A stretch of DNA of 41,090 nt from a virus, in the UHGV virus genome UHGV-0314758; one strand, 5' to 3'. A model generated the notes under the pieces. The model had not been told where the DNA came from and searched no databases. It saw only the letters and a list, made by a program, of their open reading frames with translations. Position numbers and translations under genes: made by a program. Below are positions 3,762-15,468 of the stretch, piece by piece. Each line of letters opens with the position of its first letter. Within the stretch, counting starts at the first letter, position 1.

Positions 3762-4343
3762 TTACTGGTTCTGGCTGACGATGAACTTGATGAAGGCGGC
3801 GATCTTGTTTTTCTCTTCCTGCGGCAGCCCGGCGTATTCATGGTGGTCATAGTCAATCAGACCAGCATTACCAGGCGGAAGGATCAGCTCATATGCATCG
3901 CGGCCGAACGCCCTGGCGATAGCCGACAGTACGCCAATGCTGGTGGAGCCTTCGCAGTTCAGGATGCGATTTACGGTCGCCTGGCCGATACCGGCCGCTT
4001 CCGAAACCTTTTTCTCTGAGTTCAGATCCGGATGCTGTCCCATCCATACACCCAGGGTAAACGCTGCCTGCTTTTCCACACTCCATTCCTGCGGGTCGAT
4101 AATCTCCGGCAGCGTCGGGGTATCTGACAGATGGTCGATATCCAGCCAGAACCGACCTTTCCCGGCGAACGACTCGATCTCGCGTGCCGCGTTGGCGCCG
4201 ATATTTTTTGTCCCTTTGCTCCACCTGTTAACGAGGTTAGCTGATTTTTTGATTCTCTCGGCAAACCGGAGTTGCGTGTTATCGAAATCCTTCCGGATTA
4301 TCTCATTGAGGTTGTCGCGTCTTATGTCGTAGATGCTTTTCAT
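3762..4343 (-). CDS. CI-like prophage repressor with two XRE-type HTH domains and no S24 peptidase domain
   Basis: 193 aa. HTH 1 is ...LRFAERIKKSANLVNRWSKG... and HTH 2 is ...VSEAAGIGQATVNRILNCEGSTSIGVLSAIARAFG.... There is no Ala-Gly/Ser-Lys autocleavage module. It is divergent from a cro-like gene and flanked by operator clusters. The start has no SD, as for a PRM-type leaderless transcript. Confidence 0.7.
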   Translation of the reverse strand: MKSIYDIRRDNLNEIIRKDFDNTQLRFAERIKKSANLVNRWSKGTKNIGANAAREIESFAGKGRFWLDIDHLSDTPTLPEIIDPQEWSVEKQAAFTLGVWMGQHPDLNSEKKVSEAAGIGQATVNRILNCEGSTSIGVLSAIARAFGRDAYELILPPGNAGLIDYDHHEYAGLPQEEKNKIAAFIKFIVSQNQ

Positions 4344-4413: not shown

Positions 4414-4428
4414 TTACCAAAAAGGTAA
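4414..4428. promoter_or_regulatory. operator-like palindrome TTACCAAAAAGGTAA (OR cluster)
   Basis: Perfect palindrome, 17 bp centre-to-centre from the previous site. Confidence 0.6.
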
Positions 4429-4784: not shown

Positions 4785-4803
4785 ACACCAATTTGGTAAT
4801 AAT
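4785..4803 (+). promoter_or_regulatory. promoter-like element ACACCAATTTGGTAATAAT (degenerate operator plus extended -10)
   Basis: Same TACACCA-N-TTGGTAATAAT architecture as 4444-4463. Lies between the cro-like gene and the next gene. Confidence 0.35.
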
Positions 4804-4878
4804 TATCCAAATACGGTTGATCTTTTTTTGGCTTGCTGCAAAATTACCGTAACCACAACCAGAGTGAGACAGGAACTA

Positions 4879-5087
4879 TGGAGATCATTACTCGCGTCGA
4901 AGCGGCAAAGGCAGGACTAAAGCGCTACTACACCGGTAAGCAATGTAAGCACGGCCATGACAGTGAGCGATGGGTATACAACGGGCATTGTGTCGAATGC
5001 ACCCTCGAGACTAACCGCCGCCGCCATGCTGAGATAAAACGGCTAATGCATGAGGCCTCAAAAGGTAATGCCGTGGAGGTGATCTGA
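4879..5087 (+). CDS. small zinc-finger protein (cII-position gene)
   Basis: ATG 4879 with an AGGA RBS (MEIITRVEAAKAGLKRYYTGKQCKHGHDSERWVYNGHCVEC...). The C-X5-H...C-X2-C spacing suggests a treble-clef Zn site. Confidence 0.5.
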
Positions 5088-10324: not shown

Positions 10325-10915
10325 ATGCCAAAGGATCCGAAGCGCAAATCAACTCAGTACAAACCGTTGACGGTGATGCAGGAAGCCTACGCCCAGGAGT
10401 ATGTGAAATGCCCTGAAAATCAGACGCAGGCGGCCATCAATGCGGGGTTCTCCCCAAAGTCTGCCCACGTCAAAGCCAGCACGATGATGCGTGATGAGCG
10501 TATCCAGAAACGAATCGCTGAGCTGATGGAGGAGCGCAATAAGCGCCTGCGCGTCAGCGCCGATTACGTGCTGCTGCGCCTGGTGGAAATCGACCAGATG
10601 GATGTGAGCGACATCCTCGACGATGAAGGCGGACTGAAGCCGATTAGCCAGTGGCCTAAAGTCTGGCGAACGTCGATCAGCGCAGTGGATATAAACCGCA
10701 TCAGGATGGCGATGAAGGATGACGAGGAAGATATCGAGTCCACGCTGCAAAAAATCAAATGGCCCGACAAGGTGAAGAACCTCGAGCTCATCGGCAAGCA
10801 CGTCGACGTGATGGCATTCAAAGAGCGCATGGAAGTTAACGTGAAAGTCACCATTGCCGACCGTATGGCCGCCGCTCGGCTCCGCCTGAAAGAGCACCAG
10901 GGTGGTGACCAGTGA
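10325..10915 (+). CDS. terminase small subunit
   Basis: MPKDPKRKSTQYKPLTVMQEAYAQEYVKCPENQTQAAINAGFSPKSAHVKAS..., of the P27/Terminase_2-type small-subunit family. Located immediately upstream of TerL. Confidence 0.75.
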   Translation: MPKDPKRKSTQYKPLTVMQEAYAQEYVKCPENQTQAAINAGFSPKSAHVKASTMMRDERIQKRIAELMEERNKRLRVSADYVLLRLVEIDQMDVSDILDDEGGLKPISQWPKVWRTSISAVDINRIRMAMKDDEEDIESTLQKIKWPDKVKNLELIGKHVDVMAFKERMEVNVKVTIADRMAAARLRLKEHQGGDQ

Positions 10916-12387
10916 CAGGCGCCGCTTTATCCCCGGAAGAACAGCTGATCGACGATATCGCCAGCTTCACCCATGACCCGCTGGGCTATGTGCTGTATGC
11001 GTTTCCGTGGGGCGAGGATGGCACAGAACTGGCGCACGCCACTGGTCCGCGCCAGTGGCAGGCTGACGCATTCCGCGAAATAGGCGAGCACCTGCAGAAT
11101 CCCGCGACACGTCACCAGCCGCTGATGATTTCCCGCGCATCCGGCCACGGCATCGGCAAATCTGCGTTCATCTCGATGCTGATTAACTGGGCCATGTCCA
11201 CCTGTGAAGATTGCAAGGTGGTGGTGACCGCTAACACCGACAACCAGCTGCGCACGAAGACCTGGCCGGAAATCATCAAATGGTCGAACATGGCTATCAC
11301 GAAAGAGTGGTTCACCTGCACCGCCACCGCGATGTACAGCAACGATCCTGGTCACGACAAACGCTGGCGCGCCGATGCTATTCCCTGGTCTGAGCATAAC
11401 ACCGAGGCGTTTGCTGGCCTGCACAACGAGCGTAAGCGCATCGTTGTGGTGTTCGACGAAGCATCTAACATCGCGGATCTGGTCTGGGAGGTTGCCGAGG
11501 GTGCGCTGACGGACGAAGACACCGAAATCATCTGGGTGGCGTTCGGTAACCCGACGCGCAACACCGGGCGATTTCGGGAATGCTTCCGCAAATACAAGCA
11601 CCGCTGGAAGTGCGCGCAGATCGACAGCCGCACCGTAGAGGGCACCAACAAGCAGCAGTTGCAGAAGTGGGTGGACGACTACGGCGAGGACAGCGACTTT
11701 GTGAAGGTCCGCGTGCGCGGGATCTTCCCTGACGCATCAGAGCTGCAGTTTATCCCTACCGGCCTGACCGACGAGGCAATGAAGCGCGTTGTGACAGAAG
11801 CGCAGGTGGCGCATGCCCCGCGGATAATCGGCGTCGATCCGGCGTATTCCGGCGTCGATGACGCGGTGATTTATTTCCGTCAGGGGCTGCACAGCAAAGC
11901 GCTGTGGACCGGCAACAAGACCACCGACGATCTGATTATGGCGAAGCGTATCGCTGATTTTGAGGACCAGTACCAGGCTGACGCGGTGTTTATCGACTTC
12001 GGCTACGGCACCGGCCTGAAGTCCATTGGCGACGGCTGGGGCCGGACGTGGCAGCTTGTGCCGTTCGGCGGCGCATCAGCAGACCCGCAGATGCTGAATA
12101 AGCGCGGCGAGATGTTCAACGCCTGTAAGACGTGGCTCAAGCTCGGCGGAGCGCTGGACGACCAGGAGACGGCGGACGACCTGTCCGCGGCAGAGTACAA
12201 GGTGAGGGTGGACGGCAAGATCGTCATGGAGCCGAAGGAAGATATCAAAGAGCGTCTGGGGCGGTCGCCGGGCAAAGGCGATGCTCTGTTGCTGACGTTT
12301 GCCTACCCGGTGACGAAGCGTTCGGATTTCCCTGCTGCCGGCGGCAAGCAGCCTAACGTGATCAGCGAGTACGACCCGTGGGCGTAA
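10912..12387 (+). CDS. terminase large subunit
   Basis: 491 aa with a Walker A-like SGHGIGKSAF motif and a typical TerL ATPase/nuclease layout. Confidence 0.85.
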   Translation: MTGAALSPEEQLIDDIASFTHDPLGYVLYAFPWGEDGTELAHATGPRQWQADAFREIGEHLQNPATRHQPLMISRASGHGIGKSAFISMLINWAMSTCEDCKVVVTANTDNQLRTKTWPEIIKWSNMAITKEWFTCTATAMYSNDPGHDKRWRADAIPWSEHNTEAFAGLHNERKRIVVVFDEASNIADLVWEVAEGALTDEDTEIIWVAFGNPTRNTGRFRECFRKYKHRWKCAQIDSRTVEGTNKQQLQKWVDDYGEDSDFVKVRVRGIFPDASELQFIPTGLTDEAMKRVVTEAQVAHAPRIIGVDPAYSGVDDAVIYFRQGLHSKALWTGNKTTDDLIMAKRIADFEDQYQADAVFIDFGYGTGLKSIGDGWGRTWQLVPFGGASADPQMLNKRGEMFNACKTWLKLGGALDDQETADDLSAAEYKVRVDGKIVMEPKEDIKERLGRSPGKGDALLLTFAYPVTKRSDFPAAGGKQPNVISEYDPWA

Positions 12388-12414
12388 AAAAGCCCGCGCG
12401 TAGGCGGGCTTATT
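12386..12414. terminator. bidirectional rho-independent terminator
   Basis: AAAAAAGCCCGC-GCGTAG-GCGGGCTTATT, with T/A runs on both sides. It serves TerL on the plus strand and the moron unit on the minus strand. Confidence 0.6.
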
Positions 12415-12426
12415 GTGACATGTCAC
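12415..12426. repeat. 12-bp perfect palindrome GTGACATGTCAC (copy 2 of 3)
   Basis: Read directly, adjacent to the bidirectional terminator. Confidence 0.6.
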
Positions 12427-12430
12427 GACG

Positions 12431-12871
12431 TTACATTAACTCTTTCCAGTCAACCCATTTTCCCGTTCTGCGTTTAACTTCCTCTCGCTTAAGGAATAGC
12501 AGCTCTCGACAACGCTCGCATCCATCAAATTCATCGCTATTCTTCTTAAATGGTGCTCCGCGCCGATATGTGTAAATTCCGCAAACACATCTGACAACGT
12601 AACGCGCGCCTGATTTCCCGCCGCCTTGCTGTTCAGCCAGACCGATAACCGTAAGCCATCCACGCTTTCTTCCGATCATTGATTCAACCTCTCGGCGATG
12701 CTGAGGGTTTTTGATGTTGTAGGTTGGAAAAATAGGAAGTGGCAGATCGCTGTCGCCAGTTTGAATAACTTTATTTGGCGTCCAATCCACGCCCTTACCA
12801 ACAACTCTCGCAGCAACCCGGTCAACCGGAAGGCGCTTCATGTCGAACAGGTCTTTACTCATTCTAATCAC
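12431..12871 (-). CDS. moron protein with C-terminal Cys-rich zinc-ribbon-like motif
   Basis: 146 aa on the strand opposite the late operon (...RYVVRCVCGIYTYRRGAPFKKNSDEFDGCERCRELLF...). It is co-oriented with the upstream tRNA. Confidence 0.45.
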   Translation of the reverse strand: MIRMSKDLFDMKRLPVDRVAARVVGKGVDWTPNKVIQTGDSDLPLPIFPTYNIKNPQHRREVESMIGRKRGWLTVIGLAEQQGGGKSGARYVVRCVCGIYTYRRGAPFKKNSDEFDGCERCRELLFLKREEVKRRTGKWVDWKELM

Positions 12872-13068
12872 CTTAAAAAAATGCCCGGCGAACCGGGCGA
12901 AACAGGGATGATGGAAAGTGCCGTCCTTGGCTGGGTGTCACAGGGTTTACAGCATGAAGTCATCGCAATGGCGTCCTGCTGTAAAAAGGGCGGTGGTCAG
13001 AAAGGGAATAACTGCCACCGCCAAACTTGCTCTGGAACTACGGGTATCACGGTCCTGAGGCGTGATTC

Positions 13069-13145
13069 TGGTGCAGCATGCAGGATTCGAACCTGCGACC
13101 AACCGCTTAGAAGGCGGTTGCTCTATCCTACTGAGCTAATGCCAC
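13069..13145 (-). tRNA. tRNA-Arg (anticodon UCU)
   Basis: Minus-strand sequence GTGGCAT-TA-GCTCAGTAGGATAGAGC-A-ACCGC-CTTCTAA-GCGGT-TGGTC-GCAGGTTCGAATCCTGC-ATGCTGC-A-CCA. It has a standard cloverleaf, a TCT anticodon and an encoded CCA. The acceptor stem carries two G-U pairs. Confidence 0.8.
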
Positions 13146-13460
13146 AACGAAGAGAGCACTGATTACCACAGTGGACCACCCGGCGAGGGAGGCGTTGCTT
13201 CCGCCAATGCTCTCATCGTTGCATCCTCGTCTCTTCCGAGGTGTCACACCGTACCGCCACGATGGTGAGTCGCTGTCGTGCATGCAGGGCATGGCTTGCA
13301 CATTCCGGCTACCCGCTGGGCCATGTACCAAGGAGCCCCCGGACCGCTATCGACGCATGTGCCATACGCCGGATGCTTTCACACCTGGAAGCGCACTCCG
13401 CCATCTGAGTAACGACAAAGCCACCAATGGAAGGGAATGGGGTGCGCTTTCATGTTGTGT

Positions 13461-13475
13461 TTACCAAAAAGGTAA
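13461..13475. promoter_or_regulatory. operator-like palindrome TTACCAAAAAGGTAA (divergent late/moron promoter region)
   Basis: Perfect palindrome followed by TAATTT. It is preceded by TTGTGT, which could serve as a -35. Confidence 0.5.
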
Positions 13476-13530
13476 TAATTTATCGGCAAAAGGTCAATAC
13501 ACTACGACAAATAAATCATATGTGGTTAAA

Positions 13531-13541
13531 TTGGTAATAAT
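13531..13541 (+). promoter_or_regulatory. extended -10-like element TTGGTAATAAT
   Basis: Same element as at 4452-4463, 4793-4803 and 33322-33332. Lies 24 nt upstream of the 13565 start. Confidence 0.35.
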
Positions 13542-13564
13542 TTAAACGCGTATGGAGTATCGAT

Positions 13565-13771
13565 ATGTGCATTGGCAGCAAGCCTTCAGTACCTGCGGCA
13601 CCAGAAGTTCAGGCAGCTCCACAGGAACAGGATCAGGCTGTAGTCGATTCCCGCGATGAAGAAACCAGGCGCCGCCGGGCGGCCGCCGGGCGTAGCTCTA
13701 CGCTGCTGACCGGGGCGCAGGGTGATACCTCCGCCGCAAATACCAGCGGCAAAACGCTGCTCGGTCAGTAA
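13565..13771 (+). CDS. small hypothetical protein (68 aa), first gene after the moron
   Basis: GGAG RBS 8 nt upstream. The product is Pro/Ala/Gln-rich. Confidence 0.4.
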   Translation: MCIGSKPSVPAAPEVQAAPQEQDQAVVDSRDEETRRRRAAAGRSSTLLTGAQGDTSAANTSGKTLLGQ

Positions 13772-13785
13772 CTGGAGCGCGGAAG

Positions 13786-15468
13786 ATGGCAGCGGAAACC
13801 CTGAAAGAGCAACTGCAAAAGCAGCAGGCACAGCTCACTAATGATCGCTCATCGTTCGATCCGCACTGGCGCGAACTGAGCGACTTCATCAATCCGCGTG
13901 GCTCCCGCTTCCTGGTCACCGATGTAAACCGGGATGACCGCCGCAATACGAAAATTGTTGACCCTACCGCCACCCTGGCAGCGCGCACGCTATCGAGCGG
14001 CATGATGTCGGGGATCACTTCTCCTGCTCGCCCGTGGTTCAAGCTGGCAACGCCTGACCCTGACATGATGGACTACGGCCCAGTGAAGCTGTGGCTTGAA
14101 GTCGTTCAGCGCCGCATGAACGAAGTGTTCAACAAATCCAATATCTACCAGTCACTGCCTCTGCTTTACGCCAGCCTGGGGAATTACAGCACCGGCGCTA
14201 TGGCTGTTCTGGAAGATGACAGCGACGTTATCCGCACGATGATGTTTCCGATCGGCAGTTACTACATGGCGAACTCTGCGCGCGGCAGCGTTGACACCTG
14301 TTTCCGCAAATTCTCCATGACGGTGCGCCAGCTGGTAATGGAGTTTGGCCTCAATAACGTCAGCGATTCAGTGAAGGGCATGTGGGATTCCGGCAACTAC
14401 GAAAGTTGGATCGAAGTTATTCATGCCGTTTATCCGAACATCGACCGCGATACCGCCAAGCTCAACAGCAAAAATAAGCCGGTCAAATCGGTTTATTACG
14501 AGGTTGGAGGCGACAGCGATAAGTTGCTGCGTGAGTCTGGTTTCGATGAATTCCCGATTATGGCGCCGCGCTGGGAAGTGAACGGCGAGGACGTATACGG
14601 CTCATCCTGCCCGGGTATGATTGCCCTCGGCCAGGTTAAAGCTCTGCAACTGGAGCAGAAGCGCAAAAGCCAACTGATCGACAAGGCCACCAACCCGCCG
14701 ATGGTTGGTCCGTCATCACTCCGCAACCAGCGCGTTTCCCTTTTGCCTGGCGATATCACCTATATCGATCAGGTCACCGGCCAGGAAGGATTTAAACCCG
14801 CCTATCTGGTTAACCCGAATACCGCCGACCTGCTCGCCGATATCCAGGATACCCGGCAGATCATCAACAGCGCCTACTTTGTCGACCTCTTCATGATGTT
14901 GCAGAACATCAATACCCGCTCGATGCCGGTTGAAGCAGTGATCGAGATGAAAGAAGAGAAGTTGCTGATGCTTGGGCCTGTTCTTGAGCGCCTGAACGAC
15001 GAATGCCTGAACCCGCTTATCGATCGCACCTTCTCCATCATGGCGAGAAAAAACCTTCTCCCGCCGCCGCCGGACGTCCTGCAGGGTATGCCGCTGCGCA
15101 TCGAGTACATCTCTGTGATGGCGCAGGCTCAGAAATCTATTGGGCTATCCAGCCTGTCATCCACCGTTGGCTTCATTGGCCAGCTGGCACATGCCAAGCC
15201 GGAAGCGCTGGACAAACTCAACGTGGATCAGGCCATCGATGCATTCGCGGAGATGTCCGGTGTCTCGCCGACAGTCATCGTTCCACAGGAACAGGTTGAG
15301 CAGGTTCGCGAGCAGCGCGCTCAGCAGCAGCAACAGCAGCAAATGGTGGCTATGGGCATGGCTGCCGCTCAGGGTGCCAAGACTCTCAGCGAAGCGCAGA
15401 CGGCGGATCCAAGCGTGCTGACAGCTCTTTCTAACGCAGCAGGTGCTCCTGCAGGTGGCCAGCAATGA
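13786..15468 (+). CDS. portal protein
   Basis: 560 aa. Its position after terminase, its size and its C-terminal poly-Gln tract fit a podovirus-type portal. Confidence 0.65.
   Translation: MAAETLKEQLQKQQAQLTNDRSSFDPHWRELSDFINPRGSRFLVTDVNRDDRRNTKIVDPTATLAARTLSSGMMSGITSPARPWFKLATPDPDMMDYGPVKLWLEVVQRRMNEVFNKSNIYQSLPLLYASLGNYSTGAMAVLEDDSDVIRTMMFPIGSYYMANSARGSVDTCFRKFSMTVRQLVMEFGLNNVSDSVKGMWDSGNYESWIEVIHAVYPNIDRDTAKLNSKNKPVKSVYYEVGGDSDKLLRESGFDEFPIMAPRWEVNGEDVYGSSCPGMIALGQVKALQLEQKRKSQLIDKATNPPMVGPSSLRNQRVSLLPGDITYIDQVTGQEGFKPAYLVNPNTADLLADIQDTRQIINSAYFVDLFMMLQNINTRSMPVEAVIEMKEEKLLMLGPVLERLNDECLNPLIDRTFSIMARKNLLPPPPDVLQGMPLRIEYISVMAQAQKSIGLSSLSSTVGFIGQLAHAKPEALDKLNVDQAIDAFAEMSGVSPTVIVPQEQVEQVREQRAQQQQQQQMVAMGMAAAQGAKTLSEAQTADPSVLTALSNAAGAPAGGQQ

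Follow-up and report, generated by a model that had tools for sequence, protein, structure and literature searches.

Background

The RNAs that come closest in position to the element described here are the put RNAs of phages HK022 and HK639. They are encoded in cis at the very start of the repressor-controlled early (PL) transcript, with terminators downstream, in lambdoid phages that lack an N-type antiterminator among the first genes of this transcript. Their suppression of terminators works in cis, needs no phage protein and is abolished by mutations in the zinc-binding domain of beta'. The put RNAs are about 70 nt long and consist of two stems, with a triple helix in stem I. put RNA is active even after its excision from the transcript (PMC9378689). 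The PL leader of phage lambda is likewise located early-left, directly past a repressor-controlled promoter, and contains a long helix suited to RNase III; it carries nutL (boxA/boxB) and RNase III sites ahead of N.

Other phage RNAs offer partial parallels. ROOL and GOLLD are structurally complex non-coding RNAs of unknown function (500-800 nt, from Firmicutes and other groups, present in Rfam) that are borne by phages and prophages and often adjoin tRNA genes. In the AT-rich, virulent phage T4, 'species 1 and 2' (rnaC and rnaD) are small stable RNAs which are co-transcribed and co-processed with phage tRNAs. The immunity RNAs C4 of P1 and CI of P4 are phage regulatory RNAs freed from a leader transcript by tRNA-processing enzymes; they are antisense RNAs of 70-80 nt with known targets and Rfam families. 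Here these systems are compared with a locus in a 41,090-nt stretch of viral DNA (UHGV-0314758), hereafter called the window.

Results and discussion

Layout of the minus-strand unit

The evidence supports a minus-strand unit between the terminase and portal genes that combines its own promoter and operator with a tRNA-Arg(UCU) and a cargo ORF of variable identity. Its features outside the leader are listed below.

13461..13497 (-): early promoter and operator (-35 TTGACC, -10 TACCTT and conserved palindrome)
13069..13145 (-): tRNA-Arg(UCU) with encoded CCA (ARAGORN, tct, position 35; RF00005, 68.6 bits)
12981..13022 (-): terminator T1, 3' of the tRNA, GGCGGUGG...CCACCGCC then CUUUUUAC (own hairpin and T-tract scan, -18.8 kcal/mol)
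12875..12898 (-): terminator T2, GCCCGGUUCGCCGGGC then AUUUUUUU (terminator scan; own scan -11.2 kcal/mol)
12431..12874 (-): cargo ORF and its ribosome-binding site AAGGTG (ORF list)
12386..12411 (.): T3, hairpin at which both terL and the minus-strand unit end (sequence; Rfam alignment)

The promoter has sigma70-type hexamers (-35 at 13497-13492 and -10 at 13474-13469) with a spacer of 17 nt. The operator palindrome TTACCAAAAAGGTAA (13461-13475) overlaps the -10 hexamer and the inferred start near 13462. An operator-bearing promoter region had been placed here in the initial annotation, and it is real: hexamers and palindrome are invariant in four Uetakeviruses (the window, epsilon15, a phiV10-like phage and a Klebsiella phage), and the epsilon15 record annotates the palindrome site as binding repressor and IHF. 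When the window was searched for the palindrome TTACC-N5-GGTAA, 11 perfect copies were found versus 0.56 expected. The unit therefore appears to be repressor-controlled, and the term moron, in the sense of a gene expressed from the prophage, is not supported, although the cargo ORF is variable and followed by a terminator. A simple consensus promoter scan of the window missed the promoter at 13461-13497.

The tRNA-Arg(UCU) is genuine, as its score exceeds the Rfam gathering threshold of 29 and the UCU anticodon sits in a 7-nt loop. The two G-U pairs reported in its acceptor stem (GUGGCAU/AUGCUGC) are present. AGA codons are concentrated in the tailspike and accessory genes, and core late genes contain few of them (0-1 each), which gives no support to connecting the tRNA with late gene expression.

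Transcription from the promoter through the tRNA into the ORF as one message, as initially proposed, does not agree with the two terminators that intervene: with T1 and T2 in between, the ORF is not simply co-transcribed. T1 has a homologue in Stx-type lambdoid prophages, namely the first terminator of their leader, and was missed by the terminator scan of the annotation tool because its loop is 18 nt long. T2 directly precedes the ribosome-binding site of the ORF and is conserved in phiV10-like loci, and its counterpart in epsilon15 is annotated as a rho-independent terminator. T1 and T2 stand ahead of the ORF in both the window and the phiV10-like phages, with no promoter between them. Examination of the sequence thus leaves the cargo ORF without a visible promoter of its own, the sole one seen being the operator-overlapped promoter 600 nt upstream, with T1 and T2 in between. 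The hairpin T3 had been described as a bidirectional terminator. This holds for the minus strand, where it is strong (T6 tail) and where Rfam's Trp_leader model aligns to it through its terminator portion; in the plus direction it is weaker, having no more than TTATTGTG as a tail.

The cargo ORF was found on the minus strand as annotated (12431-12871), with a visible Cys motif (CxC...CxxC). However, its likely start is ATG 12862, which gives 143 aa rather than the 146 aa obtained from GTG 12871. The protein matches PHROG 18493 (function unknown; 1e-57) and shows a weak HNH-like match (3e-4); searches of Pfam, NCBIfam, PADLOC and PDB gave no match. Different ORFs occupy the cargo slot in relatives.

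Structure and conservation of the leader RNA

Comparative analysis indicates that the leader (13371-13145) is almost certainly one copy of a conserved family of structured non-coding RNA of about 230 nt (hereafter the element). The family fold comprises helices P1, P2, P4, P5 and P6 and two pseudoknots, with an optional 5' hairpin, P0. The parts in the window are as follows.

13387..13451 (-): P0, hairpin (GAAAGCGCAC ... GUGCGCUUCC) preceding the core as an optional 5' module (minimum-free-energy fold)
13216..13376 (-): conserved core, about 160-165 nt (covariance model R1 and alignment A1)
13371-13351 (-): P1, core hairpin
13346-13306 (-): P2, core hairpin with variable tip
13301-13298 (-): PK1, pseudoknot in which GCAC of the P1 loop pairs with GUGC at these positions
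13273-13259 (-): P4, core hairpin
about 13250-13247 (-): PK2, pseudoknot in which CACC of the P4 loop pairs with GGUG at these positions
13241-13225 (-): P5, core hairpin with loop GAAGAGA
13145..13221 (-): P6, helix of 17-18 bp (CAACGAUGAGAGCAUUG / CAGUGCUCUCUUCGUUG) with variable insert (folds and covariation)

Model R1 matched the core in the window with 155.4 bits (E 1.4e-46). In two loci (L065 and L029) the P0 module likewise precedes the core; in others it comes after it. The core also contains a variable hairpin between PK1 and P4. The 3' strand of P6 reaches the first base of the tRNA, and the helix has one mismatch; we infer that P6 is a candidate RNase III site.

When 27 sequences from four phage types were aligned with MAFFT (alignment A1), 95.8% of the cells were paired, versus 27-41% with the partners slid. 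Both sides had changed in 19 of the 36 pairs, and the observed values were reached in none of 500 shuffles. Covariation was seen in PK2 (CACC/GGUG, AACC/GGUU and GGUC/GACC) and in P6, where 13 distinct arm pairs, for example GAGAGCAUU/AGUGCUCUC versus AAGAGCGCG/CGCUCUUU, have 17-19 of 20 positions paired versus 13-15 for the best chance window. About 40 positions of the element are invariant. Invariance extends to many unpaired nucleotides. The "several local hairpins" noticed at the outset do exist, but they are parts of this conserved multi-helix fold with pseudoknots.

The description of 13146-13460 as non-coding and GC-rich was borne out, with 63% GC in the core versus 53.5% in the window. 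A protein-coding role was rejected because every frame is interrupted somewhere in the family and the lengths fall into all classes modulo 3. The leader region is overlapped by a minus-strand ORF of 67 aa and a plus-strand ORF of 124 aa. When Rfam 15 was searched with the region at E<=1, the tRNA alone passed; no family covered the element, and 13146-13460 gave a weak match to mir-5985 (E 0.7). In six related loci (E<=0.05) the matches were tRNAs and unrelated C4, isrK and STnc100 elsewhere, and the element was unmatched. A degenerate tRNA or tmRNA was also considered and dismissed, as ARAGORN finds none within the element in nine loci. Literature searches that covered the conserved motifs, RNAs of the put kind, the Pas sRNAs of prophages and recent surveys of ncRNAs gave no matching RNA.

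Distribution and genomic contexts

Sequence matches place the element family widely in phages of Enterobacteriaceae, including P1 and Shiga-toxin phages; this taxonomic range rests on phage, plasmid and E. coli collections. Copies were found in 149 phage records, in 254 plasmids (mostly about 90-100 kb and non-mobilizable) and in 1976 of 5426 complete E. coli genomes. R1 detected 94 copies in 100 IMG/VR loci and gave 138 bits in phage P1, where the element lies between trnI and ban. Unrelated bacterial DNA (607 kb), used as a negative control for R1, gave zero matches. At the CPS-53 locus of E. coli K-12 (yfdO-yfdP gap) there is no copy.

The element is found in early transcripts, usually promoter-proximal and often ahead of terminators, with the virulent Klebsiella Jedunaviruses, where it runs antisense to late genes, as the one exception. 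In lambdoid and Stx2 prophages it begins 0-90 nt past a sigma70-type promoter with operator-like repeats, and a cI-type repressor gene and its terminator are located just upstream. Two strong leader terminators precede the first ORF in Stx-type prophages, and some lambdoid copies have a terminator hairpin within about 20 nt 3' of the element. The core in the window starts some 90 nt past the inferred start of transcription, and T1 and T2 follow downstream. P1 carries the element within the ban operon, which C1 controls, at a distance of 2.3 kb from the promoter; our hairpin and T-tract scan detected no terminator from the element to ban. In the virulent Jedunavirus KpV52 a promoter, the element and its own strong terminator stand alone, antisense between baseplate genes. 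When our crude terminator scan was applied downstream of the elements, no overall sense-strand excess was observed (119 sense vs 133 antisense), and the terminator evidence is therefore restricted to individual strong terminators.

A tRNA on the same strand directly flanks the element in 31 of 101 copies, and none is nearby in the other 70. The same tRNA-Arg occurs 59-121 nt downstream in 19 of the 101 loci (Uetakevirus-like placement), while in P1-like phages a tRNA ends 11 nt upstream. Epsilon15 retains only P0, P1 and part of P2, and T2 and an ORF are still there. The element is therefore dispensable in this phage, and its ORF is expressed, if at all, without the element.

Comparison with known RNAs

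HK022 putL and the HK639 putL-like RNA, the latter located from the HK639 record annotation, occupy the same position as the element, and in both cases the first downstream genes are not of the N type; for the element, no N-type antiterminator was found as the first downstream gene in six contexts. put and the element also have in common a helix CGGCG/CGUCG after CAUG and a CGG(C)AAU motif. These short motifs may reflect chance or convergence. The architectures differ, since the element has a core of about 165 nt plus P6 and two hairpin-loop pseudoknots. The element is not detectably related to the put family, as covariance searches in both directions revealed no relationship. R1 gave no match at HK022 putL and putR or at the HK639 putL-like RNA (E<=10), and the put model R2, built from 16 put sequences, found nothing in 17 element loci (the window and 16 others; E<=10), although it recovers putL (96 bits), HK639 (90 bits) and the divergent putR (33 bits). 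Likewise, blastn of the leader against HK022 revealed no similarity.

The fold of the element is unrelated to the nut hairpins. Regular-expression searches for boxA (YGCUCUUWA) were negative in 100 of 101 leaders, the sole match being in L101 and none in the window. A leader for N/nut or rrn-type antitermination was rejected on these grounds. In contrast to ROOL and GOLLD, the element has about 230 nt, is found in Enterobacteriaceae and is mostly a promoter-proximal leader. Small size, stability and joint processing with phage tRNAs are what the element would have in common with rnaC and rnaD. A C4 RNA was found in one locus (L007), elsewhere and not at the element.

Possible functions of the element

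By analogy with put, we tentatively favour, at somewhat below even probability, a reading in which the element is a put-like antiterminator that acts in cis and helps RNA polymerase past terminators; antitermination is proven for put and proposed here. In the lysogen, the repressor would keep the unit off, and the promoter would fire early after induction or infection. The nascent RNA would fold and act in cis on its own RNA polymerase, as HK022 put does. Elongation could then become resistant to Rho on the long untranslated transcript and to T1 and T2, so that polymerase would finish the tRNA and reach the ORF beyond T2 for its expression. Transcription of the early-left operon in lambdoid prophages would pass the leader terminators in the same manner. 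P6 would then be cut, probably by RNase III, and RNase P would trim the tRNA, releasing RNA and tRNA separately. As put activity survives cleavage (PMC9378689), cutting of P6 would be compatible with such a model. The position shared with putL, the terminators ahead of the first ORF in the window, phiV10-like phages and Stx-type prophages, and the lack of boxA and of N-type first genes speak for it. On the other hand, polymerase altered in this way should read through T3 as well and enter the terminase genes in antisense. Further points against it are the lack of detectable homology to put, the P1 copy far from its promoter with no terminator detected before ban, the truncated element of epsilon15 and the missing overall sense-strand excess of terminators. 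Nearly every copy of the element is closely followed by a terminator or P6, or has a tRNA beside it, and the layout of an ordinary stable-RNA gene fits equally.

The main rival is a free-standing early ncRNA which is excised and acts in trans on a host component to the benefit of the phage. We consider it possible but somewhat unlikely. One end of such an RNA would be set by the transcription start or by tRNA 3' processing, and the opposite one by P6 and RNase III, RNase P or a terminator; its target might be RNA polymerase, Rho, a ribonuclease or a defence protein. The Jedunavirus copy is just such a stand-alone gene of promoter, element and terminator, where a cis antiterminator would gain nothing. 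With 31 of 101 copies flanked by a tRNA, tRNA processing would define one end of the RNA, and the terminator hairpins close behind some lambdoid copies point the same way. The invariant unpaired nucleotides and the two pseudoknots suggest a tertiary fold that binds something, and since no phage protein gene is syntenic across four contexts, the partner would be a host component. However, in most contexts the element leads an operon with same-strand genes behind it, which intervening terminators would block unless they are suppressed. Moreover, there is no known target, and no complementarity to anything was found. It is likewise possible, though somewhat less likely than not, that the element represents a new class of ornate phage RNA, stable and early, common to temperate and virulent enterobacterial phages including P1 and Stx2 phages, that reprograms a bound host machine or is catalytic. 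Such an RNA would have been overlooked because E. coli K-12 is without a copy, at least at CPS-53.

The position of the 17-18 bp P6 against the 5' end of the tRNA, the RNase III site that the epsilon15 annotators put in the corresponding spacer and the frequent proximity to tRNAs would suit a processing or stability cassette, in which the fold and P6 would serve only to shield the 5' end and set the RNase III and RNase P cuts. The tRNA would then mature efficiently, or the mRNA further downstream would be stabilised, in the way known from RNase III sites in the early RNA of T7 and in the N leader of lambda. We regard this as improbable: a tRNA is missing from the vicinity of 70 of the 101 copies, no RNA to be processed follows the Jedunavirus copy, and a processing site can do without some 160 nt, two pseudoknots and about 40 invariant positions. 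Lower still in probability is a sensor leader (a riboswitch or factor-binding attenuator) that would tune the passage of T1 and T2 to the host state through a metabolite, an ion, a tRNA or a host protein. The complex conserved architecture, the invariant junction nucleotides and the location in 5' leaders upstream of terminators are what such a sensor would have, but the terminators are 190-320 nt downstream with P6 and the tRNA between, no alternative pairing between fold and terminator is obvious, the downstream genes are unrelated between contexts, and stand-alone copies exist. A self-cleaving ribozyme that cuts the polycistronic early RNA beside tRNAs is very unlikely. Its pseudoknotted fold, many invariant nucleotides and location exactly at tRNA-mRNA junctions would be fitting; yet the element is far larger than typical self-cleavers and matches no Rfam ribozyme family, and two serial hairpin-loop pseudoknots are not known as the topology of any self-cleaving class. 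That the leader is an ordinary spacer, a captured piece of host DNA or an overlooked gene for a small protein has in our view a practically negligible probability in spite of the overlapping 67-aa and 124-aa ORFs, as the compensatory substitutions and the lack of a frame open across homologues both refute it. Among the ideas offered initially for the leader, a processed ncRNA or tRNA-linked regulatory RNA comes closest, whereas capture of host DNA fails: matches are confined to phages, prophages and phage-plasmids, with conservation and covariation, and the yfdO-yfdP locus of K-12 CPS-53 lacks the element.

Significance for phage biology and annotation

If truly undescribed, the element would be among the commonest unannotated structured RNAs of mobile DNA in the E. 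coli group, as its reach extends to about 36% of complete E. coli genomes, Stx2-converting phages, P1-type phage-plasmids and Klebsiella phages of the therapeutic type. Because it occupies the first transcribed position after release of the repressor, its role bears on prophage induction, including expression of the early-left operon of Shiga-toxin phages. Should the cis-antiterminator reading be correct, the element would be a second RNA solution to processive antitermination beside put, and unrelated to it. For annotation, the element accounts for long 'empty' gaps such as the 286-nt gap between trnI and ban in P1, and spurious hypothetical ORFs over it in several phage records can be removed.

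Detection and distribution of the leader RNA

When the 315-nt leader was compared with phage records using blastn, 149 were matched in part, far beyond the Uetakeviruses, among them lambdoid (mEp390), Stx2a, Stx2c, P1-like SJ46 and Klebsiella Jedunavirus records. Of 5426 complete E. coli genomes, 1976 also had matches, in every case with no annotated feature beneath. Further matches lay in 254 plasmids, most of them non-mobilizable and as large as P1-type phage-plasmids (about 90-100 kb). A search of IMG/VR with a 14-mer taken from the conserved centre retrieved more than 100 loci. R1, a covariance model of the structured part of the leader (the element; window 13371-13145, minus strand), scored 155 bits on the window copy, detected 94 copies across 100 IMG/VR loci and gave no hit in unrelated bacterial DNA totalling 607 kb; E-values from our own covariance models are rough. 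On phage P1 (NC_005856), R1 scored 138 bits at L374 11020-11207 (record 71,019-71,206), and this copy lies within the 286 nt that separate trnI from ban, a gap left without annotation.

No Rfam 15 family was found over the element, whether in the window copy (E ≤ 1) or at six further loci, and its conserved motifs had no match in the literature searched, the coverage of which was incomplete, so an earlier description elsewhere is possible. The family is new to Rfam 15, RefSeq annotation and the very detailed P1 record, being absent from all three. Judged from sequence, the leader represents a pseudoknotted phage RNA family that is widespread and has covariation support. The initial annotation had described an unexplained, hairpin-rich non-coding leader; the unit is indeed real and unusual and the leader non-coding, but its local hairpins are those of a conserved pseudoknotted family fold. 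Short 'hypothetical protein' genes called over the element in several deposited phage genomes (L004 2341-2583, L006 2463-2582 and others) are probably spurious. In L030, an IMG/VR prophage-like contig, two tandem copies (3991-4157 and 4798-4962) lie on the same strand about 640 nt apart.

Structure and covariation

Structure statistics were taken from A1, a MAFFT alignment of 27 diverse element copies; A2 was set aside because it had been fitted to the model. A1 contains the invariant blocks GCACAUG, AGCGG, CCGGAAUGUG and GGCG, while hairpin tips are variable. Element lengths differ in all classes modulo 3, and no reading frame is open across the family. The proposed structure consists of:

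P1 and pseudoknot PK1: P1 loop GCAC pairs with an invariant GUGC about 85 nt downstream
P2: long helix with a variable tip
Variable hairpin between P2 and P4
P4 and pseudoknot PK2: P4 loop pairs with GGUG downstream
P5: hairpin with loop GAAGAGA
P6: long covarying helix CAAC...GUUG after P5 in most members

Standard pairs occupy 95.8 % of cells in A1, versus 27-41 % after a shift of the 3' partners by 1-3 columns. Changes on both sides were seen in 19 of the 36 pairs, and none of 500 shuffles reached the observed pairing values. PK2 is backed by three compensated variants, whereas PK1, which never varies, is no more than compatible with the data. In the window, the last base of the P6 3' strand is also the first of the tRNA. 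The P6 loop of L007 (3100-3150; Stx2a phage WGPS2) and L013 contains an inserted piece resembling a tRNA 3' half (GGTTCAATTCCAGACAGTCCCA); L013 still has a complete tRNA-Arg(UCU) beyond P6.

Genomic contexts of the element

In the temperate phages examined, the element lies in repressor-controlled early transcripts, in most of them directly after the promoter. In lambdoid/Stx2 prophages a cI-type repressor gene and its terminator come first, then a sigma70-type promoter accompanied by operator-like repeats, then the element, which begins 0-50 nt past the inferred start and is followed by a long non-coding leader and same-strand genes. The window and phiV10-like phages have an operator-covered promoter, an optional 5' hairpin (P0), the element, P6, tRNA-Arg(UCU), terminators T1 and T2 and a variable ORF. 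In P1-type phages the element is within the C1-controlled ban operon, where 11 nt separate it from tRNA-Ile2 upstream and 83 nt from ban downstream. In Jedunaviruses, which are lytic Klebsiella phages, a 286-nt gap separating baseplate genes holds, in antisense orientation, a consensus-like promoter, the element and its own strong terminator. Of the element, epsilon15 (L001 2216-2295) keeps no more than the 5' third (35.6 bits), with P0, P1 and part of P2, and it has lost the tRNA; the complete element and the tRNA are thus dispensable for a viable Uetakevirus. Elsewhere in WGPS2 (L007 628-829), the Rha-type regulator gene in the right operon contains or adjoins a cluster of Rfam C4 antisense RNA, isrK and the c4 target a1b1, a predicted P1-immI-like antirepressor control module.

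The window itself is a Uetakevirus (epsilon15/phiV10-like) genome with Klebsiella and Salmonella phages as nearest relatives. As in related records, terL (10912-12387) lies on one side of the slot and the portal gene (13786-15468) on the other; in relatives, an operator region and a non-coding stretch are found there together with a terminator and an ORF on the reverse strand. The epsilon15 authors marked this slot with a rho-independent terminator, an IHF site, a repressor site and a site labelled 'RNaseIII'. Between operator region and portal gene, a lipoprotein-like 68-aa ORF (13565-13771; PHROG 831; N-terminus MCIGSKPS...) is conserved as gp3 in epsilon15.

tRNA, cargo ORF and terminators

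The tRNA-Arg(UCU) was confirmed by ARAGORN (tRNA-Arg(tct), 13069-13145, minus strand) and Rfam (tRNA, 68.6 bits), including the two G-U pairs of its acceptor stem (GUGGCAU/AUGCUGC), and CCA is encoded at its 3' end. The initial annotation had the unit run on from the tRNA into a 146-aa ORF. The ORF exists, but its likely start is ATG 12862, giving 143 aa, in view of the ribosome-binding site AAGGTG, and two intrinsic terminators intervene:

13022-12981, minus strand: T1, intrinsic terminator between tRNA and ORF
12898-12875, minus strand: T2, intrinsic terminator leading directly into the ribosome-binding site of the ORF

No promoter was seen in this tRNA-ORF interval. The hairpin at 12386-12411, proposed as a bidirectional terminator, is strong on the minus strand but weaker on the plus strand. 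The ORF product matched PHROG 18493 (function not assigned there) and, weakly, an HNH-like family; Pfam, NCBIfam, PADLOC and PDB gave no match. AGA occurs at 4.4 per 1000 codons (41 greedily chosen ORFs in the window) and is concentrated in tailspike-like and accessory genes (9, 6, 5 and 5 copies). Since core late genes have 0-1 each, the suggested check of AGA usage indicates that the tRNA is not obviously tuned to the surrounding late operon.

T1 (12981-13022) and the terminator that comes first in the leaders of Stx-type lambdoid prophages (L019/L081, at about +205 to +255 past the element) are homologous, sharing UUUGGCGGU...ACCGCYCUUUUUACA. The element and this terminator therefore move as a single cassette, which is what an antiterminator and its gate would be expected to do.

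Promoter and probable operator network

The promoter TTGAC(C/A)-N17-TACCTT is invariant in four Uetakeviruses. The palindrome TTACC-N5-GGTAA has 11 perfect copies in the window versus 0.56 expected; they are intergenic, one being 12 nt upstream of the terS ORF:

13461-13475: operator palindrome TTACCAAAAAGGTAA, covering the -10 and start of the minus-strand promoter
3629, 3692, 4397, 4414, 6674, 6736, 10290, 13461, 32259, 33314, 33696: TTACC-N5-GGTAA copies

Such a distribution suggests a dispersed network of operators, of the P1-C1 type, that would control many promoters including late ones. The unit had been taken for a moron; since its -10 and start lie under a palindrome present 11 times, we infer that it is shut off by repressor rather than expressed from the prophage. 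The -10/operator string TACCTTTTTGG(TAA) recurs at 4417-4427, upstream of a 193-aa ORF (3762-4343, minus strand), possibly in the immunity region.

Possible mode of action

Our leading, still tentative, reading is a cis action on elongation, in which the nascent element RNA would render its own polymerase termination-resistant, as put RNAs (polymerase-utilisation antiterminators) do. This fits the strong intrinsic terminators between element and first ORF in Stx-type leaders, those between tRNA and ORF in the window without an intervening promoter, first downstream genes that are not N-type, and leaders in which boxA is absent. The element-terminator layout could equally be that of an RNA gene with its own terminator, and the stand-alone Jedunavirus copy, the tRNA-flanked copies and those with a terminator hairpin immediately 3' all argue for a discrete RNA acting on its own; a free-standing trans-acting RNA is the main rival, somewhat less likely than the cis reading. 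We consider a processing or stability cassette improbable, a sensor leader more doubtful again, and a ribozyme very improbable.

Comparison with put RNAs

HK022 putL and the HK639 'putL-like antiterminator RNA' (record annotation) occupy the same position as the element. When membership of the put family was tested, profile searches were negative in both directions: a put model sensitive enough to recover the divergent putR found nothing in 17 element loci, and R1 had no match at put loci. The features in common are limited to short motifs, namely a helix CGGCG/CGUCG after CAUG, and CGG(C)AAU.
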